DNA of 57,271 nucleotides from Lysobacterales bacterium (GCA_022844165.1 JALHMH010000030.1:1-57271), one strand, 5' to 3'. Numbered from the stretch's first letter, positions 18,354 to 37,984 are shown. Numbers and translations: made by a program. Notes: generated by a model from the letters alone, not told the origin.

Positions 18354-21230
18354 ATGCGATCAACGGTGGTTCAATCGACGCCGAAATTGTTCACGGCGGT
18401 CTACGATGGAAGCGCGGTTGTAATGGCGTGGACACCGTCTCTTGCAGCGAGCAACGGCTATACGCTGGCGATCGCGCAAAACAACAAACCGCAACAACCC
18501 ATCGCCTCGACCAAGACGTCCGATCCAACGAATGGCGATGGCGCATTGCAGTTCACGCAGTCGGATGCCGATGCCAATCCGGGCAACTGGAACCTGACTG
18601 TGGCCTCGGGAAACCTGGTCTCCGACCCGATCACGTTGCCGCAATGGGCAGTTGGTCAGGCAAGTGCGCAACTGCCGCAGCTAGTGTCAGCGATTCGCCA
18701 TCCCGACGGCTCGATCAGTGCGACCTGGCAACCGGCAACAGCGGTCGATCCGCAGCCGCAGTTTCAGATCAACCGTTACCGGATCGCGTTATGGGTCACG
18801 TCCGGCAGCTTCGCCCATGTCGAGGTTACTGGGGCTGGCGCCAATCAGGCGCTCTTAGCACCCGGAACGGGACTGTTCGCTGTCGCGGGTGCGCAGCTGC
18901 GGATCATGGGCTTGAACTCGGTCCAAGGCGGCGTCGCGACGCCTGCCATCGGCCTTGTATACGAACCGGCCACAATCCTGGCGGCGAACATCGCCAACGG
19001 CACCGCGACCGTAGTCTGGCAGCAAAGTCGCGACTCGCAAGTGACCAGCTACGTCCCCGCGATTTATGCGCTCGAGGACGGCTTCGCGACTGCAACGCTT
19101 GGCACCAGTACGCCCGGCACAAGCGGCCTGGTCACACTACCGACGCTCGATCCGAACAAGCACTATGTGACCACAGTGATTGCCAATGGCAGCAACCCCA
19201 GTATCACCGCCAGTTATCGCAGCAACGATGTGCCGATACTGACGCAGACGGCCGCGACAACGCTGTTGACGCTGGATGCCGACAGGCTATCGATCGGGTG
19301 GTCCTATGCATCGAACGCAGAAGACGCAACGCGTCTGGCCACACGGATCGAACTCGTGGCGCCCGATGGTCTTGTTGTCTACGCAACCAATAGCGCCAGC
19401 AATGGCGGCGTGTTTTCCATCCCGCGTATCGAAGGGCTCTTCGACATCCGCCTGACACCACTCGCGCAATCAGGCACCGGCCCGTCAACAACAATTCCGG
19501 CGCCGATTGCGCAAGTGCAATCGCTCTCCATCGTCACCGACGCGATTGCATGCACGAGCGCACTGACGTGGGCTCCGCTGGCGAATGTCAGCTTCGAGTT
19601 GCGATGGCGCCCGGATCAAAACGCCATCTCACTGCCGGCCGGCACCACGAGCATCAACTTGACCAGCGACCAGCAGAACGATGCCCAATTAGCGCCCTCG
19701 ATTCGCGCGGTCACGACGATTGGTTCGATCCAGGCCCGCGGTCCAGCCGTCACCGTCTCCGCGATGCCACCGACCTCTTCCGATGTCGAATGCGACTTCG
19801 ATGGCACAACGCTCAGCGCGGCCTGGACACCCGTACTCGGCGCCACGGGCTATCGACTCACGGTGCATCAAAACGACCAGACTCAAAGCGGCTGGCCGAT
19901 TGACGTCTCGGCAGCCACACTGACCTGGCAGGGCGACTTTGCCCCCAGCAGCGCGGGCGACTATCAGTTGGCCGTGCAGGCATTGCTTGGAAACACACAG
20001 AGCCTGCCGCAAAGCACGCATTTGTTCGCTGGCGGATGGTTCATTGGTAGCGCCACCAGTGGTGCCGCAACTGGCTACAACTATCCCGCTTCGACGATGG
20101 CAGCCACCGCGCAGACGACGAACGGACCGGCTGGCGAAGATATCGAGCTGTGGCTACCGCCGATTTGTGCGACGTCGATTCCGCTGAATGTCGACGTACC
20201 GCCCTTCCTGTTGGAGAACAATCCGAACGGCGGCAATGCCTTCCCCTATCGGCTGACGATCGCAGCCGGCAGCGCAGCATGGCAGTTCGATGGCAGCAGC
20301 ATTCGCACGGCCTTGCAACTGAGTTATCAGAACTTCCTGATTGCAGCCGAGAATGCCAAGGTATCGGCCTACGGCATTGCCGTACTGCAAGATGCCATCG
20401 CGCGGCACATGCCGCAGACCTTCGCCGAGAGTTTGTACTACGCCTACGGCTTCACGGTGCCGAACGCAACACTGCCGGTCAAGCAGACGCGCTACGAAGT
20501 GCGGCCCGGCATGGTGCTGTCGGTGTCGTCCGCCAGCTATCAGCGGCCTGCCGCCAGCGGCTCGGACCCGCTGGTGAATGGTTATGCGCTGACGGCTGTT
20601 ACGCACTTCGACGTACAAGTGTATGCGGGCGCGAATTTCCTGCCCGGCATCGATAGCTTCATCAGTCAACTCGCCGCACTGGGCGCTATCACCGTCAATC
20701 CGCCGACGCAGAAGGGCGCCGGCTCAGCGGGAATCGCCGCCGCAGCGGATGTGTATTACTCGCAATTTGCGCAGAGTTTCTGGAGTGTGTTGGTACCCAA
20801 GGCCTTGCAGTCGGCGAGCGATGTCGAGTCCAGCCAATGGGTGCAGCAATTCGTGCTCGCCAGCAGCGCCAGCTACAGCGATCTGGTCAACACCGTCACC
20901 CCACCCGGCGCCACGCCGGCCGTGTATTTCCGCGGCCGGAGCGTGCTCACGCCTGGGTTGCGGATCAGCGTCAACGGCAGCGAGCGCATCGTCAGCGTCG
21001 GCACCACTGTCGGCAATGTACTGACCAGCATCGGTCGTCGCCCCGGCGCCGCAGCGCAGCCGACCACCGTGCAACTGCTACGCGGCTCGGGTGCGGCGCG
21101 ACGCGGCGATGCGCTGAGCGTATCGGCGCAAGCGGTGCGCTTCGATTGGCGCGGCATCGGCAGTTGGGGCCTGGCGCAAGACAGCTTCGACTTGCCGCTG
21201 CTGCCGGGCGATGCAATCGATGTGGTTTAG
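18354..21230 (+). CDS. Operon gene A: about six FN3-like beta-sandwich repeats, unknown core domain, C-terminal beta-grasp-like domain (958 aa)
   Basis: Recurrent ~90-aa units with W in strand B and usually Y in strand C (VMAWTP..GYTL, SATWQP..RYRI, VVWQQ..SYVP, SIGWSY, LTWAP..FEL, SAAWTP..GYRL); no signal peptide; strong RBS at 18354. Confidence 0.8.
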   Translation: MRSTVVQSTPKLFTAVYDGSAVVMAWTPSLAASNGYTLAIAQNNKPQQPIASTKTSDPTNGDGALQFTQSDADANPGNWNLTVASGNLVSDPITLPQWAVGQASAQLPQLVSAIRHPDGSISATWQPATAVDPQPQFQINRYRIALWVTSGSFAHVEVTGAGANQALLAPGTGLFAVAGAQLRIMGLNSVQGGVATPAIGLVYEPATILAANIANGTATVVWQQSRDSQVTSYVPAIYALEDGFATATLGTSTPGTSGLVTLPTLDPNKHYVTTVIANGSNPSITASYRSNDVPILTQTAATTLLTLDADRLSIGWSYASNAEDATRLATRIELVAPDGLVVYATNSASNGGVFSIPRIEGLFDIRLTPLAQSGTGPSTTIPAPIAQVQSLSIVTDAIACTSALTWAPLANVSFELRWRPDQNAISLPAGTTSINLTSDQQNDAQLAPSIRAVTTIGSIQARGPAVTVSAMPPTSSDVECDFDGTTLSAAWTPVLGATGYRLTVHQNDQTQSGWPIDVSAATLTWQGDFAPSSAGDYQLAVQALLGNTQSLPQSTHLFAGGWFIGSATSGAATGYNYPASTMAATAQTTNGPAGEDIELWLPPICATSIPLNVDVPPFLLENNPNGGNAFPYRLTIAAGSAAWQFDGSSIRTALQLSYQNFLIAAENAKVSAYGIAVLQDAIARHMPQTFAESLYYAYGFTVPNATLPVKQTRYEVRPGMVLSVSSASYQRPAASGSDPLVNGYALTAVTHFDVQVYAGANFLPGIDSFISQLAALGAITVNPPTQKGAGSAGIAAAADVYYSQFAQSFWSVLVPKALQSASDVESSQWVQQFVLASSASYSDLVNTVTPPGATPAVYFRGRSVLTPGLRISVNGSERIVSVGTTVGNVLTSIGRRPGAAAQPTTVQLLRGSGAARRGDALSVSAQAVRFDWRGIGSWGLAQDSFDLPLLPGDAIDVV

Positions 21231-21318: not shown

Positions 21319-24300
21319 ATGGCAGGTATTCCCGTTTACACGCGATTGGATAACACAGGGCTCTACATCGCCGATACGCCACCGCCGCCGGGCATGGCTT
21401 ACTGGCAGGGCTATTACGCCACGGATCCCACCGGGCTTCCCGACCAGCCAACGCTGGCGCAGTTATGGGCGCACACGCAGGGTGCGTTTTTGCTGATCAA
21501 CAGTGGGCCCAGCGATCCGGTCGCCTTTGCGGTAACGCTTGCGCAGAGTTGGCAGCGCCTGGCGCCGCAACACGATTTGCGCCTGCTGTGGTTGCTTGAT
21601 CCAAACAGCGACTTTGCGGTGTGGCGCTTTCATCGATTGCGCGCCACCTTCAACGGGCAATGGACCACCAGCGGCGCTGCAGAGTTCCGGCTCGGCGACT
21701 ATGCCTACACCGTCTCTGTCGGCACCACGCTAACCCTGACCGACACGTTGATCACGCTGGCCGGCGAATTGAGCTTCGAGGCCACCAACGGCAGTTACCC
21801 CGCGACCAGCGGCAAACTCGATTTCGCAGGCGCCAGCGCTGGCGTACTGAGCTTGCGCATCGTCGCTCAGGACCTCGACGATATGCAGCGCCTGGGCGTG
21901 ATGCTGCGCTACGCGACGCCCGATCCAGACGATCCCGAGTACTTGGTCGCGCACGTCAACATGCCGATACTCGGCGCTTCGACGGCAAGCGACTATGCGC
22001 TGGATGTTGCCTTCGATCCGCTCAATCCGCTGCTGCCGGCGCGTACTGCGCTGAGCTTCGCCAGTCCACCGACGTTCAGCAGCCTGCTTGCAACAACACT
22101 GGGCCATGGCGTCGACCTGGCGCCGGGCAACGACGGCGTATTGCCCTCTGGCCAGCTAGTATTCGCCTACAGCCCAACCGAGTTACCGGGGTCAGCGTCG
22201 CCCGATCGCGTGCGCTATCACCTGGTGCCATACGGTCAGTTTGTCTTGAGCGTGGCGCCAACGGCGCGTGCCGTTGTGGGTACCGAACGGGTCATGCTTG
22301 GGCTCTCGGCCACCGAGTATTTCGCGCTGCCCGATCAGGCCGCGCGCATCGGTTTTGATGTCGGCGCGGCGTACGCCCCAACAACCAATAACGGGCCGTT
22401 GCTCACCGATGCTGCGAGCACCGCTTACGCCAAGTTCTACCCGGCCGCGCCGGCGGCTGCCGGGCTTTTGTACTACGCGCAACCACAGTCTTCGCCATTG
22501 TACGCGCCGCTCAAGCAGGCTTTTTTGTCGTATCACGAAATGCCCGCTGCGCAAGGTCCGGCACTACCCGGCAGCGATGCGCTGGGCGCCAGCGACGCAC
22601 AGTTTTTGCCGATGGGTGCGTACCTCGGCGTCGATCCCGCTCAAAACGCACTCGCGGCGATGCTGGAGAGCGCTGCTTTGGCGCCCTTGCGGCGTTCTTT
22701 GCTCGGGCTGGCGCCCACGGCGTTGCCTATAGCCGCAGATCCGCCGCCACCGCTGGCCGTGACACCACGTGGACTACTGGCAGGCCTGTCGCCAGATGGA
22801 ATTCATTTTGCCAACGTCCTGTTGAGCAGCCTGCCCGGCACCGTGTATCCCGACACGCGTCTGGCGCCAGTCAACGACGTGATGCAGGCGGCACTCCAGG
22901 CCAATCAGTTGTTTTTCGTAGCCGCCGATGTGACTGTGTTGATGGGCGCCACCTCCGTGCCGTATCGCTTGCAAGAGAGCGATCGCGGCTTGCTGCTCTC
23001 CGCTGGCGTATCGCAAGCCGGAACCGATCAGGTCATGGCGGCCGTCAAGGCGCAGGGATATCCGACATATCCGACCGAAGCTGCCTTCACGGCGGCCATT
23101 GGCGCGCTCTCGCCAGACGATCTGGCGGGCGTGCTCAGCGTCGCAGGCGTGCTGCGCGTTAACGTCGATGGCTGGACATTCCAACTCTCGCCGCGCACCT
23201 GGCGCGGCGGTGATCGCCCGACGCTGATGCTGTTCAAGTACGCCTCGCGCAGCATTATCGAACTGGCCGGCGACACCAGCGCCTGGGGCTGGCCGGCGGT
23301 CGCCGGCACGCCTTTGCAAACACAGAAGGTGCTGCTCGATTTCATCGCGGGCGCGAAGAGTGCGCCGGCGGGATCGCCCAAGGCTGATCTTTACGCCAAC
23401 GTGCTGAGCGATGCCAATTGGAACGGTGTGCTGTTTATCAACGCACCGGTGTCGATTGCAGAACTCGATCCGCAACTTGCCTTCCTGTCGGCAGGCATCA
23501 AGCCAGATCAGTTTTTTGCTGACCATGTCGGCTTCGCCCTGACCCCTTTCGATGTCGATGCCGGCACGATTACGCCCAAGCGCACGGCGGTGTTCGGCCT
23601 GATCGACTACCAGGATCCGAGCGATCTGTTGCTCAGCGCCACGGTGCCGTTCGCGTTCAAGACCTTATCGCTCACGGCGATATTTTCCAACTCTTCGCTC
23701 ACCGGCTTTCATGCCAACGTCGAGCTGATGACCAATCGGCTGTTCGGCAGCACGCTGACCAAGGTACAGCCCGAGCGCGGCAATAACCTGGTTCTCGACG
23801 GCAGCTATCACCTTGTGGATGGCGCGCCCGCATACGCGTTTTCGCTGATCGGTCAGAACCGCTATGCCGTCCAGAGTTCGATGCTCGGCAGCGTCGAAGT
23901 ACTGGCCGTGCAGCTGCAGACGCTGCAAGACAAACCGGGCAGCAGCGAGTACCTGACCCGTTTTGTGCTTAACGGCAATCTGCGCTTTTTGGACCTGCCG
24001 GATTTCGATCCGTTTTGCTACGGCACGGCACTCGGGGAACTCAGTTCCAATGCCTCCGACAGCAAACTGCGCTTCAACGGCCTCGCCGTCGATATGCGCT
24101 ACGACCTGGACAATCCGGGTAACGCGAGCTTTTCCTCGAACGAGACAGGCCTCGCTTTCGATCTCGCCAGCAGCGTCCCCAGACCGCAGTCGCTCGCCGC
24201 ACGTTTTCCGCTCACGCTCACGGGCATCGTCGGTTTCGGCGCGGATGCAGATGCCGCGAATACGCCCGAATCCCTGAGTTTCGTTTCGATCGCCGCGCCC

Positions 24301-24831
24301 CTGCAGCAGCAGCCAATGACGCCGCCATGGTACGGTCTGGTTTACACGCTACAACTTGGCACGCTCGGCGCACTCGCCGGCAGCGTTGGTTTATCGATCA
24401 AGCTGATCGCCGCCTTCGCGCCTGGACAAAGCGGCAGCCGCCCCGCGTACATTGGTCTTGAGTTGCCCAACGCCAAATCCATGGGACTGAATCTGCCTTT
24501 GCAGGGCGTGCTCCAGCTGGGCTTCCGCAGCTTCGAGATGCAAAGCTACCCGCACAAAGACGACCCCACGCAGCGCGGTTACTTGCTGCGCCTGCATCGC
24601 TTCGCGCTGTCGGTACTCGGCTTCTCGTTCCCACCTGGCAACACCGATGTGCTGCTGTTCGGCGACACCGACGACAGCGGCAAAGTGGTGCTCGGCTGGT
24701 ACGCCGCCTACGCGCAGGACGCCAAGCCCGCAAACAAAACCAGCGCGCTGCGGCGCCGCCACTCACCGCACGCATTGGCCAGCCACCGCGAATCCCGATC
24801 GCGCCGCGATCTGACCACCGGAGAGCACTGA
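21319..24831 (+). CDS. Operon gene B: large beta-rich protein of unknown function (1170 aa)
   Basis: Long ORF with strong codon bias; C-terminal half made of amphipathic strands (FAFKTLSLTAIF, WYGLVYTLQLG, YLLRLHRFALSVLG, LGWYAAY); Arg/His-rich tail; no signal peptide. Confidence 0.8.
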   Translation: MAGIPVYTRLDNTGLYIADTPPPPGMAYWQGYYATDPTGLPDQPTLAQLWAHTQGAFLLINSGPSDPVAFAVTLAQSWQRLAPQHDLRLLWLLDPNSDFAVWRFHRLRATFNGQWTTSGAAEFRLGDYAYTVSVGTTLTLTDTLITLAGELSFEATNGSYPATSGKLDFAGASAGVLSLRIVAQDLDDMQRLGVMLRYATPDPDDPEYLVAHVNMPILGASTASDYALDVAFDPLNPLLPARTALSFASPPTFSSLLATTLGHGVDLAPGNDGVLPSGQLVFAYSPTELPGSASPDRVRYHLVPYGQFVLSVAPTARAVVGTERVMLGLSATEYFALPDQAARIGFDVGAAYAPTTNNGPLLTDAASTAYAKFYPAAPAAAGLLYYAQPQSSPLYAPLKQAFLSYHEMPAAQGPALPGSDALGASDAQFLPMGAYLGVDPAQNALAAMLESAALAPLRRSLLGLAPTALPIAADPPPPLAVTPRGLLAGLSPDGIHFANVLLSSLPGTVYPDTRLAPVNDVMQAALQANQLFFVAADVTVLMGATSVPYRLQESDRGLLLSAGVSQAGTDQVMAAVKAQGYPTYPTEAAFTAAIGALSPDDLAGVLSVAGVLRVNVDGWTFQLSPRTWRGGDRPTLMLFKYASRSIIELAGDTSAWGWPAVAGTPLQTQKVLLDFIAGAKSAPAGSPKADLYANVLSDANWNGVLFINAPVSIAELDPQLAFLSAGIKPDQFFADHVGFALTPFDVDAGTITPKRTAVFGLIDYQDPSDLLLSATVPFAFKTLSLTAIFSNSSLTGFHANVELMTNRLFGSTLTKVQPERGNNLVLDGSYHLVDGAPAYAFSLIGQNRYAVQSSMLGSVEVLAVQLQTLQDKPGSSEYLTRFVLNGNLRFLDLPDFDPFCYGTALGELSSNASDSKLRFNGLAVDMRYDLDNPGNASFSSNETGLAFDLASSVPRPQSLAARFPLTLTGIVGFGADADAANTPESLSFVSIAAPLQQQPMTPPWYGLVYTLQLGTLGALAGSVGLSIKLIAAFAPGQSGSRPAYIGLELPNAKSMGLNLPLQGVLQLGFRSFEMQSYPHKDDPTQRGYLLRLHRFALSVLGFSFPPGNTDVLLFGDTDDSGKVVLGWYAAYAQDAKPANKTSALRRRHSPHALASHRESRSRRDLTTGEH

Positions 24832-24832
24832 C

Positions 24833-29300: not shown

Positions 29301-32300
29301 CATTCATTGGCCGCGGCGGCATCTACTTCGCGCTGCTCGACGGCACGACGTCGACGCGCGTGCCCAAGATCACCAACGGCGAGTTCTCGCCGGTGATCGA
29401 ACTTGGCATCGGTCTTGCGGTCGGCGTGGGCACCGATCAGGTGATCGGTCCGCTGTCGATAGGCGCGTACATCCAGGTCGAGGCGGTGTTCCTCGGCGTG
29501 CTGGGGTGGTTCAACCCCAGAAACCACGATCAGTCCAAGGCGATTTACTTCTGGTGCCAGGCCACCGCCGCGATCGTCGGCAAGGTGTACGGCACGGTCG
29601 ATTTCAAAATCATCTCCGTGTCGATCACGCTGATGGTGGAGGCCGAGGCGCAGGTCACCTACGAGGTGTATCGGCCGGCGGTGTTCTTGCTTGCCGTGCG
29701 CGTGCGCGCTGAAGCCAAAATCAAGATTCTCTTTATCAAAATCAGCTTCTCGTTCTCGATTGGCCTCAGTTTCTCGTTCACCGTAGGCAGCGTGCAGCAA
29801 ACGCCGTGGACGATCGCCAGCGATGGCGGATCGGTCAACGCGCGCCTTGCGGGCCGGAGCTTGCCGGCGCTGGCGCGGCAACCGGCCATGCGCGCCTTCC
29901 ACCAGCAGCGGGCGCACTTGCGCGCACTGCATGCGCGGCGTCGCCTGGCGATGCTGACGTCGGTTGCGCAGGCGCCGTATCTGCTGGAGTTCGATCCCGA
30001 TCGCGTGGTGCTGCCGGGCGGCAAATCGACACTGTCGTTGCATGCGCTGCCGGCTTTCAGCATCGATGCGATGCCCTACTCGTGGTCTGGCAGCGCGCCG
30101 ACCAATGGCAACCCGCAGTATCGCTGCGCCATGGTGTTGACCGCCGACGACGGCGTGCCCGTGGACGCAACAACGCCCACGCAGCGTCGCCAGCGCAGCG
30201 CGGCGCTCTCGTTGCAAGCGCAGAACGACAACGACCTGCCCGCCGACCGCTTGTGCCAGGCGCTGTTGCGCTGGGCGATCTCTGCTGTCGTATCGCCAGC
30301 CTCGCCGGATCCAACGCTGATCACCAACGGACAATTGCAGTTGCTGGCCACACAATTGCAATGGCCGGAAGCCGCCGATCAGAGTTTTTCGCTGGACAAC
30401 CTCAAGCGCTTCTTTGCCCACAACCTGAGCTTCGAAATCGCGGGCGATCCGGGCGCCACGCAGGTCAAGGGCGGCATGCTGGTGCCGATGCCGCCACTGC
30501 TGACGCTGGGGTTCGGCCCCACCGGCCAGACGCCGTCGTCCAACAATTTCGCACAAGTCAACAAGGTCGGCTCGCTCTACGAATGGGGCGTGAAGCAGTA
30601 CGTGGCGACCTTCGTGACACGAGCACCTGCCGCAGGCGACAAGCCACACGACGATCCGACGAAATACGAGTCGTTGGCCAGTTTCGTTTTCCGCGATTAC
30701 ATGCTGATGTTGACGCGCACGCTGGTGGAAGCCGCGCAATCGCAGCTCGACAAGGCCAGCATCACACTGACGGCGCCCGCCAGCCTGAGCCAGATCGCCG
30801 CGATGTTTCCGACCACGACGCTCGACTACATCGTGCAACCGGGCGACACCGTTGCCAACGCCGCCGCTACGCTCGGCCTGGGTGTGGTCGAGTTGGAGGC
30901 GCTGAATCCTGGATTCGCCGCAGCCCTGGCTGCGGCAACGCCGGGCGATCCGATTGCCGTCGTACTCGGCGTCGCACCCGCGCTGGTTGCCGTGGATAAC
31001 CCGAGCGCCACGCTGACGCCCGGCGTGTACCCACTGGGATCGGTGCCGGCATCGATTCGATCTGGCGACACCTTGAGCGCCATCGCGACGCGCTTTGGTG
31101 TTGCTGCTGGCGCGTTGGGATTGCTCGACGTCGACAGCGGCGCGGCCGCGATTCTGCAATCCGGCGCCACGCTCGCCACGCCGGTGTTCAAGTACATTCC
31201 GACAACCGCGATGACTACAGTGCAGGTCGCCGCGCGATTCTTCGCGCGCCTGGCGCTGCCAGCGATTCCGGAGCAGCCCTGGTTCTCGGAGACCATCGCC
31301 AACTGGAATGCCGCCACGCTGCAAGGCGTGAACAGCAACGGCGAGTTGCCCGCCGGCACGTCGCTCATCGTGCCGGTCGCATTCAACGACAGCAACAGCT
31401 TGAACGGCACCGCGTACACGAGCGTTCCGGGCGATACGTTGATGCGCATCGGCAATCAATTGGCCCTGGCGCTGTGTTACGCAACCGGCACGTCGTTGCC
31501 GGATTGGGCCACGTTCCGCGATGCCGTGATCAGCAGCGGCGGCAGCTTCGCGTTGCCAGCGAGCCAGCTCAAACTGCAAGACGGCGAGACGCTCGCAGAA
31601 CTGGCACGCCGCGTGTTGCTCACCGACGCCAGCGGCACCCCGAACTGGCCGGAACTCGCGCCCTGGATTGCCAACGCGAAAATCCTGCAGCCGCTGGCGG
31701 TTCTGACCGTCGCCGCGGCGCGCGTCGACACCCACACATACACGACGTTCTCGGCCATGGCCGATGCCTTCGACTTGCCGCTGCTCGCCATCGGCACGGC
31801 GCTGGCCTCGGCACCGGATTTGATCGCCGCAAGCGCCAACACACCGCAAAGCGTGACCATCGCGCACCTGCCGGTGCAGGTAATCGATACCCTGGTCGAC
31901 AGCAGTATTGCCGAGCACTTACCCGATATCGTCGGGCGCGCCTCGCGACAGTTGCTGGCCGGTATGCGCATTCCGAGTCCGCAGTACGATGGCAACGGGA
32001 CGGCCTCGGCCAGCGGTCCGCTCGGCAGCCTGTTGACGCTGACCGGACAGCAGTTCCCGTCGGTGGCGCCTTCGAGTCAACCCGATGCACCCGGGCTGGA
32101 GATGAAGCTCACGGTGAATGCGGATGCGCAGTTCATCACGCTGGTGTCGTCCGGCACCACCGCGCCTGGGCACGCGGCGAATGCGACGCGCAACCCGGGA
32201 CTGCTGTCGGAGCGTGCATTGGGACTGGTCTACTTCGGCGATCCGGTGCCGGAATTGGATTTCTTGTACAGCGCCAGCGACCTTGCATCCCGTTACCCGG

Positions 32301-35300
32301 CCGCCAGTTTTGCGCTGGCGCCGATTGTTCAGCCGGAAGCTTTGCCACTGGCCAGCTTCTCGCCGGTGCGCTATGGACTCGATCACGAGATCCCGCTGCA
32401 AACGCCGATACAACTGGCCATTCCCGGCAGCGCCAACGCGCCCAACAGCGCGCCGAGCGCATGGCGCTTCCCCGAGTCCTTGCGCGCGCTGGCACTCGCG
32501 CGCAGCACCGAGCTTTTCGAGATCGAGCTTTCGCCGCCACGCGGCTCGGCCAGCGACGAAGCGACGATGGTCACTGCATCGACTTTCGGCGCGCTGGTCA
32601 ATTTCAAGATCCGCAGGACCGATGGACCCACCACTTACGAACTGATCGGCGCCAATGGCGATGATCGCCAAGTGCTTCTGGACATTTTCCAGTCGCTGGG
32701 CGTCGACGGCCCGGCCAACGCCTACCTGTTGCTCGCGCCCAGCGTGCAAGCAGGCGACCGCGGCGGTTTGGGCGTACTCAATCCCGCCACCGCGTTCCTG
32801 CTGCGGACGAACTTGTCGGTGGCATCGGTGCCGGAAACAGTCGATAGCGCCGGTCTTCGCGCGGAAGCCGCCGATCCTATCGTCGATGGCGCCACGCTGG
32901 CGCAAGCGGTGCGCTTTGCGCTGCTGCTATGGGAAGGCAGCACCGTCGGCGGCACCGGGTACTTCCTGCAGTTGATCGGCGCCGACGGCCAGGGACTGCC
33001 GGGCAGTGCTTTCGACCAGGACGGTACAACGCAGTTGTCGCTGCTGGTCATCGCCGCGTCGCAGCAACAGCCGGCGCCGGGCGGGCGCGGCTTGCTGCCG
33101 TTCAACAACTGTGCGCTGATCGCGAGCGCCATCGATGCCTCGGCCAGTCAACTCAGCGTGGTCGACAGCAACGATGCGCTCGGCCGCCACATCGCCAACG
33201 TGGCGCCCGGCCACATCGGCTATCGATTCACGCTGCCCAACGCCAGCGCGAGCGCCAACGATAGCGCCGGAGATCCGCCCAACGTCCTCGAACTTTTCAA
33301 CCTGAGTGCCTGGCGCCTCAACGGCACCACGTTCTCCACCAGTGAAGCAGCACCGCCGTTGCAGCCGCTGGAAAAACCCGTCAGCACATGGCGCACTGCG
33401 CGGCTACATTCGCGGCTGCGCGCTCTGGGCCAAAAGCCGGTGCTCGAAGAAGCGCCTGCCGGCCCGTGGTACTACGAACAGGTGCTGCCGATTTTCCGCT
33501 TCGCGCCCGCCTCGAAGGCCGCCGGCGGCCCCGGCCTGCCGCCGCCGGAGAATGATCCTTACCGCGGCATCGGCGGCGCCACCGCGCTGCCCAGCGCATC
33601 CTTCGCAATGAGCTTTGCCGATGTACAGGGCAACGCCACGCAAGAGAACACGCCTCCCGGTCTGGCCCAGGTAGCCGTCGGCTATACCGATGCGTTGCGC
33701 CCGCCGCTCAGTTGGCCGGCCACGCGCATCGGCTACTCGGTGGTTGGTACCACCAGCGCACCTGGAATCGACATCGACGTTCGCGCGCAAGCGGCCGCCG
33801 TGCAAGCCAGCCTGACGCAACCCGAATCGCAAACACTGGCAACTGCCAATACGCAGGTCGGCGACCTCGATGCGGTGCACTACCAGCTGGCCCAGCCGGC
33901 GCTCGAGGTTTATGCGCTTACCTCGCTCGCACCCTCCGTGCCCGACGGCATCGCGCTTGATGGCGCGGGGCTACAGTTCTGGCAGTACATCGCCGGGCTG
34001 CGCATGTACTCGGCCGCCGCCGCGGCGCTGCGCGCGGTGCGACCCGCCGCGCTCGCACCCATCACGCTCGTCGAGATCGCGAACCAGTACGGCGTCAGCC
34101 TCGGCGCCATGGCGACGGTCAATGGCGGACTCAACGCTTTCGCGCTGCTCGGCTCGGCACCGGTGCCAATGCCCGCGTACGTGGGTTGGGCGCAGGGCGA
34201 CAGCATCGTCACCTTGCTCTTGCGCGCACCCAAAGGCGTGAACCTGTTGAGCGCCGTCGACGCCCTCAGCGATCCGCGCAATGCCGCCACGCTGCCGCTG
34301 GCGCCCGGCGTGCTCCTCGCCATCGACCCACGCAGTGCAACTGTGCCGGTCATCGTGCCGACGGCAACGCTGTCAGATATCGCGAACATCAGTCGTACGA
34401 CCGTCCAGCAACTGCTCATCGACAATGGCGATAACGCGACATTGTTCGCCGACGGCGCGCAGATCGAGCTGACCGACGCCACGATTACCATCGGCGAAGT
34501 CGTCCAGATTCGCGGCGTCGACGTCAAGGTACAAACGCCGAACCAGGTGGTCGCCGCCTTTGCCACCTTGGGCGAACACTTGAGCGTAGCCGAGCTGGCG
34601 CAAGCGATTGCCGATCAGCACGATTTGCTGGTGGCCGGCGCCACCTATAGCAACGCACATTACGAGGTGCCATCGCCAAGCGCCGACGATCCCTTCGAGA
34701 CCCTGGCCAACAACGGCTCCGGCGAAACGCTGGCGCGTCTGGCCGCGTTGAACACCGGCACGGCGTTGTTCGACGCCGGCGCCATGGTCTATGTGGGTGC
34801 TTATTCGACCGCGCCGATCCTGAGCCCCGACAACGAAGCCACGCTCGATCAGTTCGCCGCGCAGTACGGCATCAGTTCGGCCCTGTTGCTGGCCGAACTG
34901 GCGCGCGCGGCGCGACCGCTACCGGCGCAGTCGATATTCGAAGTGCCCGGCTTGATGCGCCCCGTCGATGCCAACGCGCTACGCGTGCCGGCGCATGTCG
35001 ATTCCTCGCAAACGCTGACCGAAAACCTGCGGCGCTTCGCCGCCAGCAGCGCCGCGCAATTCGTCGCCGACAATCTGACGATGCCGGGCCAGTTGATCGC
35101 CGGCCAGACGATCAAAGTCGAGTTCCAGGGCACGCCGTACCAAACCCAAACGCAGGCCGACGACCGTCTGCTCGATGTATTGCAGCGCCTGCAGCAACAG
35201 CAGTCGCAGATTGGCAGCGCCGACCTCGGCAACGCCATTGCCGATCAGTCCGGCCTGCTGCAGCCGGCGTTGGCGCAGTGGCTGCCCGCCCTGATCGCCG

Positions 35301-37984
35301 AGCAAAGTAGCTCGCTGTCCGGCAGCGCCGCACGTTATGGCTTGAGCGCCATCGAGTTCGCCAGCGCCAATCTCGGTGTCGATGCATTGATCGTGAGCAA
35401 CGTGCCGATCGCGTTGCCCAGCGCCAGCACCATCACCGTTGCCGCCGACAGCTTGAACGCCATCCTCGGTCGCTTGAATGTGCAGGACGCTGATCTGAGC
35501 CTGGAGACGCTCGTCGAGGCCATCGCCGATCTGCCGCTGCTGCGCGCCCAGGCGCTCGCCCTGTTGCCGCCACAGAGCTTGACCTTGACCGTGCCCTTGC
35601 CGGCCGCGTTCCAGGCGCCAGCACCCTTCTTTGCGCTGAGCGTTGCCCTGCGCATGCAACGTCCTGCGGCACTGATCGATCCCAACTTCGAGGCCACCGG
35701 CCCAGTCGCTCAGGTCAGCAGTGCGCTCAGCCCAATCAACACCGGCCAGCAAATTTTCGCCGGCGATCAGGGCGTGCTCGCGCTCTCGGCCGATATCCGC
35801 GCGCGTTTCCCGAACCTGCGCCTCGCCACCGGCAGCGTATCCGGCGAGAGCGGCCAGTTGTGGCTCGTGGATTTCGATCGTAATGGCATCCAATCGGTGT
35901 CCATCGCACCCGACGCACCGGGTCTGCACGGCGAGAAATGGCCGCGTTTCTTCGCACTACGGCCGCTCTACGGGAGTTTGATCAGCCGCCCAGGCATCGT
36001 GCTGCAAATCGTGCAGACCGACGGCACGCTGCAGCCTGCGCCGCAGCCCAGCGATTTTGTCGGCGTCGATGTGGAACTGTGGGCGTTGCAGTACCTGGCC
36101 GATCTCGATCGCGTGCTGAGCCCGCCGTTCTCCACCGCGCTCTATGGCAATGCCAGCGCGCAGCCTGCCATCACCCAAATGCTGGCCGCCAAACGCAAGC
36201 TCGCCCAGGGCCTGTTCGACGACAAAGGTCACGTCATCGCCGGCAGCGGCATCGCTGGCGCCTTGTGGCCGGTGCTCGCACTGCAGCAGGCGGTCGGCTC
36301 CGATGCGCTGGCAACCGCGCGCCAGAGCATCAGCGATGCACTCGGCATCTCGTTGGTCAGCGGCTACAGCACTGGCGCTTTGCTGCAATACGCCAGCAAC
36401 GTGCGCTCGGTGTGGCAAGCGCCATCGCCGCCGGCCCCGGCGCGCCTGTATGGCGCTGCCACCACGCCAAACGATCCGGGTAAACCGCCGTACAGTCTGA
36501 CCGCCGCCAAGACCGATCTCGCCACCGCGAACGGCCAGGTGAACTTCCTGCTCACCGTGTCCGATCCGCGCCAGCAGCGCAACATCGATCTCAATCTCGG
36601 TTACGACATCACTCACCTCGAATGCAATATTCGTCCAGTCGATGTCGACCCCAACACAAGCTACGATGCGTCCAACTGGCTGAACTTCGCGCCACCGCTG
36701 AGCGGCGCGGTGCTGCCCTCGGCCATCACCTTAGCGCTGGGTCAAACGTTGGCACCGCTGCCGCTGCGCACCTATCCGGCACTGCCATCGGTACGCTCAC
36801 AAAACGCGCAGCAAAGCGTGCAAGACGACGGCTCGCCGCCGGTGCTCGGCGATTTGGCGTTGTGGGACTACCAGATGTCCTACAGCCACGAACACGCAGC
36901 GCAGGACGAAGTCATCATCGGGATTCGATTCAATCAGCCGATCGTTCGCAGAAATGGCCGGTTTGCCGCTGCGCCAGATCTTGCGGCAGCGCTCGCCGTG
37001 TACGTGAGTGCCGCGCCGGCGTTGTTCTCGTTGATGTTGCCGCTGGGCGATGCCAAAGCCACGCCCGCAGCCCTGACAATCGCCGGCACCGCCGCCGGCA
37101 GTCTGGCGACGCTGTCGACGTCGGTCGCCGATGCCTGGTCGCAGCACTTTATGGGCAACGGCAACACGGCCAACGCGGCCGACACCGTCGACTCGATCTG
37201 GCTCAGCGCAAGCCTGAGTTACCAGAACGGCGACATCGCCGCCGTCACGTTGACCCGAATCGCCGACCCCGACGTACCAGACGGCGCGCCCGGCCCGGCC
37301 GGCCCGAATGGCGCGTGGCCGGATCTTGTGCTCACCGATCCGAATGGCAATGCCATCCCGCTCGGCAATGGCACGGGCGATGAGCTCACGCGAACCTATG
37401 TACTTCCCGACCCGCTGCCCGCACAGCCGTGGATCGAACTCAGCGTGACCTACACTAAGCTCAACATCGCCGCATACCAGAACGCCCGCGCGCAGTTGAG
37501 CGTCGTACGCAATCGCGAGCTGATTCCCGGTGCGCTGACGATGACCAGTTTCGTCTTCGCCTCCGCGCCAGTGCAAGCACCCGCCGCTGCGACACCGCTC
37601 AATCAGTGGTCGAGCACCGTCGACATCAGCGACGCCGGCGCCAGCCCCACCGCAGCCCTCGGCGCCGCACTGCAAACGATCTTCGTCGGCACACAACTGC
37701 CAGTGACGATCACCGTGTCGTATGGCTATGAGCTAACCCCGCCAAGCGGCGGCGCCTCCCGCGGGCTGACCACCTACCTGCCCGTATACCTCGTCCCCAA
37801 CCAGGTCTGGACCGAACAACTCGCCGCCGAACTCGCCAAACAAATGGACCAATGGCACAAAGACAACCTGCCCAATCCCAAAGGCGGCGAATGGAGCTTC
37901 GGCATCACCGCCCACTCCACCCTCGACCCCTCGGGAACGCTCGCGGTGCTGGATGTTGAGCGGATGCGGTATGGGTTGGGGTGA
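26315..37984 (+). CDS. Operon gene D: giant 3889-aa protein with N-terminal amphipathic beta-sheet region and two LysM-like arrays
   Basis: Uninterrupted 11.67-kb ORF, RBS GAAGGA; aa ~1-1165 beta-strand rich; LysM-like units such as YIVQPGDTVANAAATLGLGVVELEALNP and IRSGDTLSAIATRFGV; no signal peptide. Confidence 0.9.
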   Translation: MSLSDIYAAISNAIVDQRIDLANLAEQPRQPDLFAGLRTVLGLFQLSSRFPLTDVVLDPLTDRIHLRGSGSFAPIGVANAIEASLTITMPGSDPLFALELRFASAETSLASLVSTFPPFSVFDADRGTVAQQASFLFGVSVGSMLLSGANDGVEALSLSGTLADSEATIQRFSYLLNGWPLAVRGSLVLPASASDIAQLDLRAVDPSKEIRFFSNVLTRVGFQLWSGPDPDAIGKVLGASSLNLIGDLKFDDTSEPATMWLPLAASDQLWRFIVEFPDGTVKIGKSVGALAGLLGLAPSDLSLPEGFEALDPFFLKEFELGLSAFDAPIPDRGAPVLDWQWKQDLAAPSLQSLGVTIGSTIRWPAPIPQVVITDVGMRWVVGSNDSAWFMSGALYGTIVIGDAEKLPNSVLLFSSDARAPIAVDAFALEVTAYVPNFIITAELKQNYALPIGKAFQHFFNADPNIDAELSLTTMSAMADFKSRTFNAEAEVQGNWPSIKINNVTLAMTDLRFTVDVSQSSFDATIDGEIELTTKTSPGPAIIHLGTEYSHASDGNNWSFNGSLAPYNALSVNDLVSNLLGVDPPAGIPQLVIDAMGFRYSTGTGAYSAYGTVSLTWRPTVLGDITIATSASATVNRDSKTAPITGSVSGDFSVNQLNLSLSADIGVANPTYTFKIQFGDPYIELISGWTQTTPKQRLLTAHLGGMTVGGVLEYLVNLAAPTIGYKLDPPWDVLNRIDLSNFELAANLDTSTLTLGYKTSIDLGVIKISNLGVSYTRGQGMSGVNLVLEGNFFGQDYTGPKALAWDVIKDPPPAVPGGGNGTLDIYYLGLGQRVRLTDLKPNSVRQLLDAMEKAMQPVSQDPNAKPAPPPINNGIEFNANSQWLIGLDITVGGVARLGLIFNDPVIYGLSVSLGGPKSGSMSGLNFELLYKKISDNVGMFRIDLTLPVALRTINLGQVSITLGVIVVEIFTNGNFSVDLGFPWKRDFSRSFTLQYLPFIGRGGIYFALLDGTTSTRVPKITNGEFSPVIELGIGLAVGVGTDQVIGPLSIGAYIQVEAVFLGVLGWFNPRNHDQSKAIYFWCQATAAIVGKVYGTVDFKIISVSITLMVEAEAQVTYEVYRPAVFLLAVRVRAEAKIKILFIKISFSFSIGLSFSFTVGSVQQTPWTIASDGGSVNARLAGRSLPALARQPAMRAFHQQRAHLRALHARRRLAMLTSVAQAPYLLEFDPDRVVLPGGKSTLSLHALPAFSIDAMPYSWSGSAPTNGNPQYRCAMVLTADDGVPVDATTPTQRRQRSAALSLQAQNDNDLPADRLCQALLRWAISAVVSPASPDPTLITNGQLQLLATQLQWPEAADQSFSLDNLKRFFAHNLSFEIAGDPGATQVKGGMLVPMPPLLTLGFGPTGQTPSSNNFAQVNKVGSLYEWGVKQYVATFVTRAPAAGDKPHDDPTKYESLASFVFRDYMLMLTRTLVEAAQSQLDKASITLTAPASLSQIAAMFPTTTLDYIVQPGDTVANAAATLGLGVVELEALNPGFAAALAAATPGDPIAVVLGVAPALVAVDNPSATLTPGVYPLGSVPASIRSGDTLSAIATRFGVAAGALGLLDVDSGAAAILQSGATLATPVFKYIPTTAMTTVQVAARFFARLALPAIPEQPWFSETIANWNAATLQGVNSNGELPAGTSLIVPVAFNDSNSLNGTAYTSVPGDTLMRIGNQLALALCYATGTSLPDWATFRDAVISSGGSFALPASQLKLQDGETLAELARRVLLTDASGTPNWPELAPWIANAKILQPLAVLTVAAARVDTHTYTTFSAMADAFDLPLLAIGTALASAPDLIAASANTPQSVTIAHLPVQVIDTLVDSSIAEHLPDIVGRASRQLLAGMRIPSPQYDGNGTASASGPLGSLLTLTGQQFPSVAPSSQPDAPGLEMKLTVNADAQFITLVSSGTTAPGHAANATRNPGLLSERALGLVYFGDPVPELDFLYSASDLASRYPAASFALAPIVQPEALPLASFSPVRYGLDHEIPLQTPIQLAIPGSANAPNSAPSAWRFPESLRALALARSTELFEIELSPPRGSASDEATMVTASTFGALVNFKIRRTDGPTTYELIGANGDDRQVLLDIFQSLGVDGPANAYLLLAPSVQAGDRGGLGVLNPATAFLLRTNLSVASVPETVDSAGLRAEAADPIVDGATLAQAVRFALLLWEGSTVGGTGYFLQLIGADGQGLPGSAFDQDGTTQLSLLVIAASQQQPAPGGRGLLPFNNCALIASAIDASASQLSVVDSNDALGRHIANVAPGHIGYRFTLPNASASANDSAGDPPNVLELFNLSAWRLNGTTFSTSEAAPPLQPLEKPVSTWRTARLHSRLRALGQKPVLEEAPAGPWYYEQVLPIFRFAPASKAAGGPGLPPPENDPYRGIGGATALPSASFAMSFADVQGNATQENTPPGLAQVAVGYTDALRPPLSWPATRIGYSVVGTTSAPGIDIDVRAQAAAVQASLTQPESQTLATANTQVGDLDAVHYQLAQPALEVYALTSLAPSVPDGIALDGAGLQFWQYIAGLRMYSAAAAALRAVRPAALAPITLVEIANQYGVSLGAMATVNGGLNAFALLGSAPVPMPAYVGWAQGDSIVTLLLRAPKGVNLLSAVDALSDPRNAATLPLAPGVLLAIDPRSATVPVIVPTATLSDIANISRTTVQQLLIDNGDNATLFADGAQIELTDATITIGEVVQIRGVDVKVQTPNQVVAAFATLGEHLSVAELAQAIADQHDLLVAGATYSNAHYEVPSPSADDPFETLANNGSGETLARLAALNTGTALFDAGAMVYVGAYSTAPILSPDNEATLDQFAAQYGISSALLLAELARAARPLPAQSIFEVPGLMRPVDANALRVPAHVDSSQTLTENLRRFAASSAAQFVADNLTMPGQLIAGQTIKVEFQGTPYQTQTQADDRLLDVLQRLQQQQSQIGSADLGNAIADQSGLLQPALAQWLPALIAEQSSSLSGSAARYGLSAIEFASANLGVDALIVSNVPIALPSASTITVAADSLNAILGRLNVQDADLSLETLVEAIADLPLLRAQALALLPPQSLTLTVPLPAAFQAPAPFFALSVALRMQRPAALIDPNFEATGPVAQVSSALSPINTGQQIFAGDQGVLALSADIRARFPNLRLATGSVSGESGQLWLVDFDRNGIQSVSIAPDAPGLHGEKWPRFFALRPLYGSLISRPGIVLQIVQTDGTLQPAPQPSDFVGVDVELWALQYLADLDRVLSPPFSTALYGNASAQPAITQMLAAKRKLAQGLFDDKGHVIAGSGIAGALWPVLALQQAVGSDALATARQSISDALGISLVSGYSTGALLQYASNVRSVWQAPSPPAPARLYGAATTPNDPGKPPYSLTAAKTDLATANGQVNFLLTVSDPRQQRNIDLNLGYDITHLECNIRPVDVDPNTSYDASNWLNFAPPLSGAVLPSAITLALGQTLAPLPLRTYPALPSVRSQNAQQSVQDDGSPPVLGDLALWDYQMSYSHEHAAQDEVIIGIRFNQPIVRRNGRFAAAPDLAAALAVYVSAAPALFSLMLPLGDAKATPAALTIAGTAAGSLATLSTSVADAWSQHFMGNGNTANAADTVDSIWLSASLSYQNGDIAAVTLTRIADPDVPDGAPGPAGPNGAWPDLVLTDPNGNAIPLGNGTGDELTRTYVLPDPLPAQPWIELSVTYTKLNIAAYQNARAQLSVVRNRELIPGALTMTSFVFASAPVQAPAAATPLNQWSSTVDISDAGASPTAALGAALQTIFVGTQLPVTITVSYGYELTPPSGGASRGLTTYLPVYLVPNQVWTEQLAAELAKQMDQWHKDNLPNPKGGEWSFGITAHSTLDPSGTLAVLDVERMRYGLG
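30760..31900 (+). repeat. First array of degenerate LysM-like protein repeats in gene D
   Basis: SLSQIAAMF, YIVQPGDTV, IRSGDTLSAIA, YTSVPGDTLMRIG, LQDGETLAELAR, TFSAMADAF; not conserved at DNA level. Confidence 0.7.
34060..35570 (+). repeat. Second array of degenerate LysM-like protein repeats in gene D
   Basis: TLVEIANQYGVS...N, WAQGDSIVTL, TLSDIANISRTTVQQL..DN, TLDQFAAQYGIS, QADDRLLDVLQRL, SLSGSAARYGLS...AN, VAADSLNAILGRL. Confidence 0.65.

Follow-up and report, generated by a model that had tools for sequence, protein, structure and literature searches.

What do four tightly packed genes that together encode 6501 amino acids build, and does their product act outside the producing cell or within it? 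The genes, here called A to D, lie in a 57,271-nt stretch of DNA from a Lysobacterales bacterium (the window, i.e., the whole stretch that was analysed). As the first-pass annotation had described, they are co-oriented on the + strand, have intact frames (958, 1170, 484 and 3889 aa) and are separated by only 88 nt (A/B), 1 nt (B/C) and 27 nt (C/D). Its call of good ribosome binding sites was likewise borne out, with Shine-Dalgarno motifs before all four starts (GGGGAGGG for A, GAGGA for B, GGAGAG for C and AAGGA for D). The longest frame of A begins at GTG 18180; the ATG at 18354, which directly follows its Shine-Dalgarno motif, is preferred. The next gene after D, a TIR gene (E), has no Shine-Dalgarno motif. 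A sigma-70 consensus scan of 17200-21400 returned 0 sites, and neither Rfam families nor tRNAs were detected in the window.

Genes and domains of the locus

The features of the locus are as follows.

18120..18353, +, non-coding leader of A, ending in the Shine-Dalgarno motif GGGGAGGG (sequence inspection)
18354..21230, +, gene A, 958 aa: variable FN3 array, then a conserved C-terminal domain without assigned fold
18378..20033, +, FN3 array of A, residues ~9-560 (Pfam fn3, profile search, self-HMM)
20034..21227, +, conserved C-terminal domain of A, residues 561-958, without Pfam or PDB match
21319..24831, +, gene B, 1170 aa: obligate partner of D without known domain (upstream of D in 61/61 loci)
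24833..26287, +, gene C, 484 aa: soluble ComEC-type MBL-fold hydrolase (predicted DNase)
25064..25081, +, codons of the C metal motif H78-S-D80-A-D82-H83 (invariant in 34/34 aligned C-family proteins)
26315..37984, +, gene D, 3889 aa: chassis protein of the cassette
26315..28114, +, effector-specific N-terminal domain of D, residues 1-600 (exchanged with gene C)
28262..29824, +, Gly-rich invariant core of D, the family signature, residues ~650-1170 (conservation peak)
30827..31177, +, two LysM modules of D, residues 1505-1621 (1505-1550 and 1580-1621; Pfam, self-HMM, PDB)
34064..34135, +, third LysM module of D, in a second array, residues 2584-2607 (Pfam, NCBIfam)
35582..37981, +, conserved C-terminal domain of D, residues 3090-3889, without assigned fold

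The FN3, ComEC-type MBL and LysM assignments made at first inspection for A, C and D were recovered by Pfam or profile matches. In A, at least three FN3 modules were detected by Pfam or self-HMM (17-84, 215-277 and 482-543), with a Pfam fn3 score of 29.7 bits (cut-off 25), and the family profile matched titin/fibronectin at E 5.8e-21. The spacing of the modules suggests an array of about six. This array diverges faster than the other parts of A, and the number of FN3 modules in A homologues ranges from 1 to 13. By eye, the last ~90 aa of A look beta-grasp-like. Protein B consists of a variable N-terminal part of ~750 aa and a conserved C-terminal part of ~420 aa that ends in WYAAY and a basic tail; PDB sequence and profile searches with B gave no matches. 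Word-index searches with B returned 5 and 4 proteins, numbers that reflect the swamping of the index by low-complexity words and are not a sign of rarity.

The core of D had no Pfam or PDB match; at E<=0.001 it was recovered from 1445 representative clusters (1.84 billion searched). In sequence and profile searches of the PDB, D matched LysM proteins alone. The LysM assignment is well supported for residues 1505-1621 (Pfam E 7.2e-12; self-HMM 8.4e-15 and 1.2e-7; matches to LysM proteins in the PDB), and the Pfam LysM score of D is 39.1 bits against a cut-off of 20.9. The third module was recognised by Pfam (E 1.3e-6 on segment 34025-35581) and as a SafA-type LysM by NCBIfam. A by-eye count of ~13 LysM-like repeats in D was abandoned, as an iterated HMM backs two modules and Pfam one more; further LysM-like repeats can be seen by eye within D 2570-3090. 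A motif in the C-terminal domain, Y3523-S-H-E-H-A-x-Q-D3531 (36881-36907), does not vary among 17 D homologues and is nearly invariant in 45.

In the complete A-D proteins, and in 10 segments of them screened at E<=1, Pfam reported fn3, LysM and a sub-threshold Lactamase_B, and nothing more. Neither an ATPase nor any other NTP-binding domain was recognised in the ~6500 aa by Pfam, NCBIfam or the 10-segment Pfam scans, and no Pfam or NCBIfam model covered B, the D core or the C-terminal domain of A. The suggested labels DUF6603 and 'hemagglutinin' were not recovered. DUF6603 had no Pfam match in A-D (E<=0.01) or in the 10 segments (E<=1), and the term was absent from the full-text literature searched; no hemagglutinin-type Pfam match was obtained, nor does such a name occur among the 120 homologues listed. 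Transmembrane segments were absent from A-C, and D has one marginal candidate. In agreement with the reported lack of Sec/Tat signals, a simple hydropathy heuristic flagged signal-like hydrophobic N-termini in 1/46 D proteins and in none of the B (0/41), C (0/34), A (0/31) and X4 (0/14) proteins, X4 being a fifth gene that is described below. X4, A, B, C and D were compared with one another profile against profile and had no domain in common. Selection is purifying where dN/dS was computable (0.02-0.25), and no positive selection was seen there; dS was saturated in C and in B 302-451.

Conservation, spread and genomic neighbourhood

The cassette was found in 69 loci from at least eight phyla. 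According to the first-pass annotation, a genuine system should keep the order A-B-(variable enzyme)-D in distantly related taxa, and this is the order that was observed: B lies upstream of D in 61/61 loci with room for it, and A upstream of B in 49/52. Apparent A-B fusions in crude ORF calls were open-frame artefacts of GC-rich DNA, A and B being in different frames. Recurrence of this order in 69 loci and eight phyla puts the grouping of the genes far beyond chance. In the D-core tree, the phylum label changes 17 times (minimum 7), and nine records place the cassette on large plasmids. Thus, A-B-C-D is one horizontally mobile cassette. It was present in only 4/39 relatives and in 0/299 other genomes sampled in the class, and the D core was found in 0/50,697 phage records. 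No published description of the cassette was found in the full-text literature (main texts); it is rare and without a characterised member.

Among 910 called ORFs, the only recurrent families were X4, A, B, the slot nuclease and D. X4, a putative autoprocessing Hint protein, lies upstream of A in 21/25 loci with room for it. In these relatives it has the N-terminal Cys nucleophile and the T-x-x-H block of Hint/bacterial intein-like proteins (C325 and H392 invariant in 14/14), and it matched Pfam Hom_end_hint (4.6e-8) and, by profile, the Prp8 intein (5e-9) and the BIL domain 2lwy (1.7e-7). X4 is absent from the window's clade and was found neither in the window nor in its genome. The four genes described at first are a real unit; the canonical cassette, X4 - A - B - nuclease slot - D, has a fifth gene that was overlooked and that was lost in the window's clade.

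No secretion, phage, ATPase, lysis or immunity gene is conserved around the cassette loci, and at sequence level the reported lack of secretion, phage-tail and Tc/Rhs hallmarks holds. A small conserved ORF that could serve as an immunity candidate was not found across the 69 loci; the gaps of 1 and 27 nt around C leave no room for one. The MacB-like gene upstream of the window's cassette is not conserved beside other cassettes. The 128 flanking proteins scanned are mostly regulators or metabolic enzymes with few defence genes; Septu, PDC-M62 or type I MTase genes lie beside the cassette at a few loci. TIR-type genes adjoin the 3' end of D in the window and in its closest relative (G001), but as two different sets. 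The TIR/SLATT cluster does not belong to the system and was inserted separately: by tblastn it is absent from 69/69 other loci, and in the closest relative its place is taken by a different TIR-SLOG gene. In a biofilm metatranscriptome (X7), contigs of a relative were 90-95% alike to part of B and much of D, an observation on contigs only, for which DNA carry-over is possible.

Exchange of gene C and of the N-terminus of D

The position between B and D is a nuclease slot. In 61 loci, it is occupied by a ComEC-type MBL protein (54), an HNH nuclease (4), or an EEP-type enzyme or nothing (3), and the three enzyme types all have phosphodiesterase/nuclease folds. C is the exchangeable effector of the cassette. 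It has the H-x-[HD]-x-D-H motif and the downstream His/Asp ligands of ComEC-like MBL-fold hydrolases, and all metal ligands (H78, D80, D82, H83, D208, H239, H240, H280 and H308) are invariant in 34/34 proteins. Its score against Pfam Lactamase_B is just under the cut-off (20.6 vs 22.7 bits), and among solved structures the ComEC MBL domain is nearest to it (9vc6, E 4.5e-5). C also matched PADLOC MBL models of several different systems, partially and over residues 7-116 (LmuA 4.7e-12, DRT MBL 1.4e-11), as well as NCBIfam Avs1a (6.6e-7), and the MBL of one cassette matches LmuA/DRT/Avs1a-type defence models at 1e-64 to 1e-67. In addition, the C family matches the MBL domain within a PHROG 'tail protein' family (3.8e-10). 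The Pro/Ala/Arg-rich, flexible tail of C closes in a conserved terminal peptide. Its pattern, chosen post hoc, was present in 32/62 tails and in 1/128 unrelated tails (mean of 0.5 after shuffling). A different terminal motif is common to HNH and f7 proteins.

The N-terminus of D is exchanged together with C. dS amounts to 1.3-2.7 in D 1-600 and to 0.13-0.42 across the remaining D, and the breakpoint recurs in two Pseudomonas pairs; [C + D 1-600] is one recombination unit in two clades. Furthermore, the D N-terminal profile scored 88-141 bits in 7/7 out-of-sample MBL cassettes and 11-21 bits in 4/4 HNH cassettes, and in the single cassette without an effector gene it had no match, D beginning there at the core. 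As judged by these profiles, the D N-terminal domain tracks the predicted nuclease type and is missing where the nuclease gene is missing. All HNH cassettes belong to one clade, so the association between effector and domain does not come from independent events. The co-variation of C and the D N-terminus could be mere linkage of genes that are adjacent in the DNA. Taken together, the tail with its terminal peptide, the swap of C with D 1-600 and the tracking of the effector by the D N-terminus give indirect support to the idea that C may be carried by the large proteins.

Possible functions of the cassette

As far as can be read from sequence, the cassette appears to build a huge protein assembly with a swappable DNA-cutting enzyme, which probably serves microbes as a weapon or an immune device of a new type. 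We tentatively favour, with a probability of roughly 0.4, an ATPase-free complex that would work independently of secretion systems, bind wall glycans and carry a docked nuclease as a weapon between organisms. A, B, C and D would join in one large ATPase-free assembly, with C docking through its flexible tail and terminal peptide on the N-terminal domain of D. This domain may both carry C and keep it harmless, which would explain the absence of an immunity gene. Where X4 is present, its Hint domain might cut off or ligate the X4 N-terminal domain in maturation. The assembly would need no dedicated secretion system to leave the producer, for which lysis of part of the population or another route could suffice; its LysM modules would bind glycans of the target wall, peptidoglycan or chitin, the variable FN3 array of A may give reach or target choice, and the DNase would be brought to or into the target. 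With still less confidence, it is tempting to speculate that such cassettes form a new class of macromolecular weapons of ~6,500-7,200 aa, of which this one would be the first example: ATPase-free, independent of known secretion systems and latching on to bacterial or fungal wall glycans by LysM arrays, with swappable nucleases, each neutralised by its cognate D N-terminal domain, and thus with immunity residing in the carrier.

This reading is consistent with the order conserved over 69 loci and eight phyla, the nuclease folds of the slot enzymes, the complete metal site of C, its linker and terminal peptide, the exchange of [C + D 1-600] and the variation of the D N-terminus by effector type. 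The LysM, FN3 and BIL-type Hint modules are of extracellular type. In aerobic phyla, moreover, A, B and D are low in charge and poor in Cys (8-17% charged residues and 0.1-0.9% Cys; flanking genes 19.5-23% and 1.1-1.5%), unlike C, the composition of which is normal. The lack of NTP-binding domains, the absence of the D core from phages and the horizontal spread also fit. Several points argue against a weapon. Signal peptides, secretion genes and lysis genes are not conserved, which leaves the exit route speculative; the peptidoglycan of Gram-negative targets is not exposed; and just three LysM modules in the window's D are statistically solid. The linkage of C and D and the origin of all HNH cassettes in one clade weaken the argument from co-variation.

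The main rival, which we rate as somewhat less likely, is an intracellular abortive-infection complex, in which A, B and D would form a giant cytoplasmic sensor-scaffold and C would be held inactive on the D N-terminal domain until a phage, a plasmid, or wall damage perceived via LysM-bound muropeptides frees or activates it. Much of what counts against the weapon would be expected here: export signals were found in no family, in diderm and monoderm phyla alike, and the termini of the proteins align colinearly between phyla; the Firmicutes versions are near-normal in charge and Cys, fitting cytoplasmic life; the nucleases stand alone without immunity genes, as is typical of defence systems; and the closest profile matches of C are the MBL effectors of Lamassu-, DRT- and Avs1-type anti-phage models. 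A rare, patchy and horizontally spread cassette, the two TIR-type gene sets beside D in the window and its closest relative, and the Septu, PDC-M62 or type I MTase neighbours at a few loci point the same way. However, the ATPases, helicases, STAND proteins or other NTPases of known large defence complexes are missing from the cassette. Proteins with LysM, FN3 and BIL-Hint modules that are low in charge and poor in Cys are typically extracellular, few of the 128 flanking proteins are encoded by defence genes, and A, B and D are without PADLOC match.

Improbable, in our view, are two further readings. The genes might encode structural parts of a particle or mobile element that has so far escaped recognition (tail-less, bacteriocin- or virus-like), with C particle-associated and the other genes elsewhere. 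The proteins are very large and of constant length (D homologues mostly ~3,700-4,070 aa among the 120 matches listed), the C family resembles the MBL domain of the PHROG 'tail protein' family, and the spread includes large plasmids; but no conserved capsid, portal, terminase, tube, sheath or integrase gene lies nearby, PHROGs gave zero matches for A, B and D, no phage record contained the D core, and the cassette is self-contained in unrelated contexts. Little probability is likewise given to a non-conflict role in the envelope as a wall-anchored scaffold for processing or uptake of extracellular DNA, adhesion or biofilm formation. Such a role would suit the ComEC-type MBL domain, which acts on DNA in uptake, LysM and FN3 as adhesion or anchoring modules and, weakly, the biofilm contigs, whereas hypervariable recombining effectors and the replacement of MBL by HNH or EEP are signatures of conflict rather than housekeeping, and the cassette is very rare in its class and has no detected export signal. 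Chance juxtaposition or mis-calling of giant ORFs is refuted by the invariant B-D order, the dN/dS values and the Shine-Dalgarno motifs on all four genes.

As a weapon, the complex would have a delivery route independent of all known secretion systems, with the carrier itself conferring immunity. As an immune complex, it would be a giant sensor that is free of NTPases and equipped with LysM modules, and it might couple wall damage to DNA destruction. A cassette of ~20 kb with more than 1000 representative clusters, most of its mass without a family model, marks a blind spot in microbial conflict biology. The swap of nuclease and adaptor domain is a directly testable handle under either reading, and it can be approached experimentally in hosts that are culturable and non-pathogenic, among them Pseudomonas putida NBRC 14671, P. 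fluorescens P5A, Chitinophaga and Sphingomonas.

With respect to known systems, the proposed wall-binding nuclease carrier recalls the Tc (ABC) toxin complexes. TcA/TcB/TcC are very large and multi-subunit, lack signal peptides and ATPases, occur in Gram-negative and Gram-positive soil bacteria, carry an enzyme payload without an immunity gene, possess Ig/FN3-like receptor-binding modules and mature autoproteolytically. The cassette likewise occurs in soil bacteria of both Gram types and has very large proteins without signal peptide or ATPase, FN3 modules, no immunity gene and, with X4, a putative Hint step. It differs in that its payload is a separate gene and not the TcC C-terminus, in its nucleases and in its LysM arrays, and at sequence level the Tc models (VRP1, TcA_TcB_BD, SpvB, TcdB mid domains, RHS/YD) had no match in A-D. 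For polymorphic toxin systems (CDI, Rhs, MafB), passages of Zhang et al. (2012; PMC3482391) describe recombinational swapping of toxin and cognate partner, Hint-type processing domains, and LysM and other adhesion modules in the delivery proteins. In the cassette, by contrast, the toxin would be its own gene upstream of the giant D and not the C-terminus of D, and the co-swapped partner is the N-terminal domain of D itself and not a small immunity gene. Neither T5SS/CdiB, T6SS, T7SS or other secretion genes nor eCIS, tailocin or T6SS sheath, tube or baseplate genes are among the recurrent neighbours, and A, B and D had no PHROG match.

The MBL effectors of anti-phage systems (AVAST type 1 Avs1a, LmuA of MBL-type Lamassu, the RT-associated MBL of DRT, 6A-MBL) resemble C as nucleases without immunity gene and with patchy, horizontal occurrence. 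C differs by falling far below the family cut-offs (Avs1a 28.4 vs 420 bits) and by having no STAND, SMC or reverse-transcriptase partner; in PADLOC-DB 2.0 no system had all components matched, with matches for C only and 0 families for A, B and D. With ComEC/Rec2, C shares the MBL-fold nuclease domain and the H-x-D-x-D-H motif, but it lacks the membrane channel, the OB domain and transmembrane segments (TIGR00361 19.8 vs cut-off 190). Finally, cargo of encapsulins and of extracellular contractile injection systems bears loading peptides. The cassette has no shell, tube or sheath protein, and the docking site would be the D N-terminal domain; the likeness lies in C, an otherwise variable enzyme whose flexible linker leads into a short conserved peptide at its end.

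The four genes and their conserved cassette

The first-pass annotation had proposed an operon of four co-oriented genes with short gaps, good ribosome-binding sites and intact frames, and this was confirmed:

18354-21230, A, co-oriented with B, C and D: FN3-array protein, 958 aa, intact ORF
21319-24831, B, co-oriented with A, C and D: partner of D, 1170 aa, intact ORF
24833-26287, C, co-oriented with A, B and D: ComEC-type MBL hydrolase, 484 aa, intact ORF
26315-37984, D, co-oriented with A, B and C: LysM giant, 3889 aa, intact ORF

The gaps A/B, B/C and C/D are 88, 1 and 27 nt. All four starts are preceded by a Shine-Dalgarno motif; none was found in the start region of the gene directly 3' of D. 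The claimed lack of Sec/Tat signals also held, as no signal-like N-terminal hydrophobic stretch was found in A, B, C or D. No transmembrane segment was found in A, B or C, and D has one marginal segment. Pfam recognised fn3 in A, LysM in D and, below threshold, Lactamase_B in C; for B, searches of Pfam, NCBIfam, PADLOC, PHROGs and the PDB returned nothing. When ten separate A, B and D segments were searched against Pfam at E<=1, the sole addition was LysM, at D 1501-1829 and 2571-3089.

The FN3 array of A (profile against titin, E 5.8e-21) varies from 1 to 13 modules across homologues, with at least three detected in the window, and is accompanied by a conserved domain of ~400 aa for which no known relatives were found. 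C has a full, invariant set of MBL metal ligands (H78-x-D80-x-D82-H83, D208, H239-H240, H280, H308). Its nearest solved relative is the ComEC nuclease domain; among profiles it comes nearest to those of MBL effectors from defence systems, at scores far under the family cut-offs. D begins with a variable N-terminal part of ~600 aa, followed by a Gly-rich core (~650-1170) that is invariant. LysM modules occupy residues 1505-1550, 1580-1621 and ~2584-2607, and D also has a conserved C-terminal domain whose motif Y-S-H-E-H-A-x-Q-D is invariant in 17 D homologues and nearly so in 45. A further gene, X4, encodes a ~320-aa domain of no known kind and, C-terminal to it, a Hint domain whose Cys325 and His392 are invariant, so that self-cutting at Cys325 would be expected. 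X4 was found neither in the window nor, by six-frame HMM search, in its whole genome (99.97% complete), and the closest relatives likewise lack it; the window carries a genuine four-gene variant. No domain shared between any two of the five families was detectable.

An apparent near-uniqueness of B (five clusters in the first search) was rejected as an artefact of the word index. Of 1826 candidates scored against the N-terminal part of D, 213 clusters passed E<=0.001; among the matches listed, nearly all homologues carry the label 'hypothetical' or 'LysM' and have a length of ~3,900-4,000 aa. The D core profile matched 1,445 representative clusters at E<=0.001 (1,055 at <=1e-30) among 1.84 billion. 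Scanning one genome per species gave 69 loci with flanks, by record title from Pseudomonadota (33), Bacteroidota (11), Actinomycetota (9), Bacillota (7), Acidobacteriota (4), Chloroflexota (2), Gemmatimonadota (2) and Planctomycetota (1). By family HMMs, B is the immediate upstream neighbour of D in 61/61 loci with room (in the other eight a contig end cuts off this region), A upstream of B in 49/52 and X4 upstream of A in 21/25. The suggested order A-B-variable enzyme-D across distant taxa was therefore borne out, in 69 loci and eight phyla. Clustering of the 910 called ORFs returned just five recurrent families, X4, A, B, slot enzyme and D. No gene for secretion, no phage or ATPase gene and none that looks like an immunity gene recurred; of the 128 flanking proteins closest to the cassettes, most are regulators or metabolic enzymes.

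The cassette is present in 4 of 39 related genomes, the window's own included, in 0/299 other genomes of an even sample of the class, and in nine plasmid records; the D core was found in 0/50,697 phage records. The maximum-likelihood tree of the D core requires 17 phylum-label changes (minimum 7), and Alpha-, Gammaproteobacteria, Bacteroidota and Actinomycetota each formed a single clade in 0/200 bootstrap trees. On the upstream side, the flanks of the window already differ from those of its closest relative, G001. On Tistrella mobilis pTM1 (L082), RefSeq annotates Hint, three hypothetical proteins, LysM and hypothetical; D is split there into 2,521 and 1,487 aa, which explains the ~2,520-aa D variant. 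Tistrella carries several cassette copies per genome or plasmid. A reduced cassette (252, 1178, 1114 and 2614 aa, no nuclease gene annotated) lies on the conjugative plasmid pBRH02 of the endofungal symbiont Mycetohabitans rhizoxinica (L083).

The slot between B and D

According to sequence comparison, the B-D slot is occupied by an exchangeable predicted nuclease.

Gene(s) between B and D in 61 loci
Single MBL: 36/61
Two MBL: 10/61
Three MBL: 1/61
Long MBL form: 2/61
Partial or diverged MBL: 5/61
HNH nucleases and a diverged paralogue: 4/61
Other: 3/61 (EEP-family enzyme in L077; weakly EEP-like protein in L076; empty in L078)

In L072 (Lachnoclostridium; 664-2523), counted in the partial or diverged group, the MBL gene lies upstream of X4 instead. 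Matches to the PADLOC MBL models LmuA (1e-67) and Avs1a (1e-64) were assigned to it because no other MBL gene occurs among the flanks that were scanned. At their C-termini, MBL proteins carry a Pro/Ala-rich linker and then a short conserved peptide. Its core pattern, chosen post hoc, occurs in 32/62 MBL tails versus 1/128 unrelated tails (shuffled mean 0.5). In the window's clade, C ends in a basic R/K stretch in place of this peptide. HNH proteins share a terminal motif of their own, unlike the MBL peptide. Arg-rich, disordered-looking stretches are seen in the C-terminal tails of B (24700-24831) and C (26100-26287) and in the linker after the D core (residues ~1170-1210, 29825-29944); these may be related docking or nucleic-acid-binding segments. 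Three kb upstream of the cassette, 13571-15445 (- strand) encodes a 624-aa endonuclease/exonuclease/phosphatase-family protein; that it shares its family with the L077 effector is probably coincidence.

When the window is compared with G001, dS stays at 0.13-0.42 along D 603-3889, as in the flanking gene H532 (0.22), against 1.1-2.8 in A, B 1-750 and D 1-600; for C, divergence is too high for a dS estimate. Where computable (C and B 302-451 excluded), dN/dS is 0.02-0.25. Divergence is thus mosaic, with a border between 18354-28114 and 28115-37984: dS is saturated in A, the greater part of B, C and D 1-600 and at background level in the rest of D, which implies that half of the operon was recently replaced by recombination. 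In two Pseudomonas pairs, X4, A, B and the part of D past ~600 show background dS (0.28-0.68, mostly 0.3-0.55); C reaches 1.3-2.1 and D 1-600 reaches 0.9-1.3. The breakpoint at D ~600 is identical in the Pseudomonas pairs and in window/G001. A D N-terminal profile built from MBL-type cassettes scored 88-141 bits in 7/7 out-of-sample MBL cassettes, Firmicutes included, 11-21 bits in 4/4 HNH cassettes (one clade, together with L068, in the D core tree), and 38 and 4.5 bits in two EEP-type cassettes. It had no match in L078, which has no effector gene and whose D starts at the core; the D core profile gave 384-663 bits in all cassettes of this test set. We read D(1-600) as a putative cognate adaptor of the effector. 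Since the two elements adjoin, linkage alone could also explain their co-inheritance. A second caveat is that the four HNH cassettes share a single clade.

Released carrier or intracellular complex?

We favour the reading that the cassette product is a released, wall-binding nuclease carrier, to which we give a probability of roughly 0.4. LysM, FN3 and BIL-type Hint modules favour an extracellular role, as does the composition of A, B and D, which in aerobic phyla are of low charge (8-17%), strongly acidic and Cys-poor, whereas C is ordinary; the absence of any NTPase in the ~6,500 aa of the cassette was counted on the same side. An intracellular immune complex is kept as the main rival, at a somewhat lower probability. 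In its favour, export signals were found in neither diderm nor monoderm hosts, the nucleases lack immunity genes, the MBL effectors are defence-like, Firmicutes versions have normal Cys content and TIR genes adjoin D. If the adaptor domain also masked the nuclease, the missing immunity gene would no longer be an objection to a weapon.

No description of the cassette was found by full-text searches of the literature, and the LysM passages of a polymorphic-toxin survey (PMC3482391) do not describe it. B, the C-terminal domain of A, the N-terminal domain of X4 and all of D except its LysM modules lie outside every Pfam, NCBIfam, PADLOC and PHROG model. We would rate the cassette as categorically new; should its folds prove Tc-like or of other known architecture, it would be a variant of that architecture.

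The variable region 3' of D

Three genes follow D:

38034-39704, E, co-oriented: TIR and FGE-sulfatase
40231-41934, F, co-oriented: 567 aa, weak C-terminal SLATT_1 match
42034-46059, G, co-oriented: 1341 aa, N-terminal TIR like that of SARM1

This TIR/SLATT cluster, noted as abutting the operon, is not part of the cassette: tblastn found E, F and G in 0/69 loci and in none of the genomes G001, G002 and G008, and G001 carries an unrelated TIR-SLOG gene at the matching spot (L013:21787-24198). The site is a variable hot spot adjoining D in the window's lineage and not a conserved partner. Beyond it, 46143-50006 (- strand) holds a convergent pair of genes (532 and 691 aa) without Pfam or PDB match, kept beside the cassette in G001 only (94% and 68% identity); the 691-aa protein weakly matches a PADLOC '2TM effector' (9e-5). 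In the biofilm metatranscriptome X7, contigs match part of B (23878-24506) and a large share of D (within 28171-37984) at 90-95%. One of them leaves the window sequence exactly at the D stop codon and runs on into GC-rich sequence resembling a hairpin, which is what would be seen if that relative had no TIR insertion.
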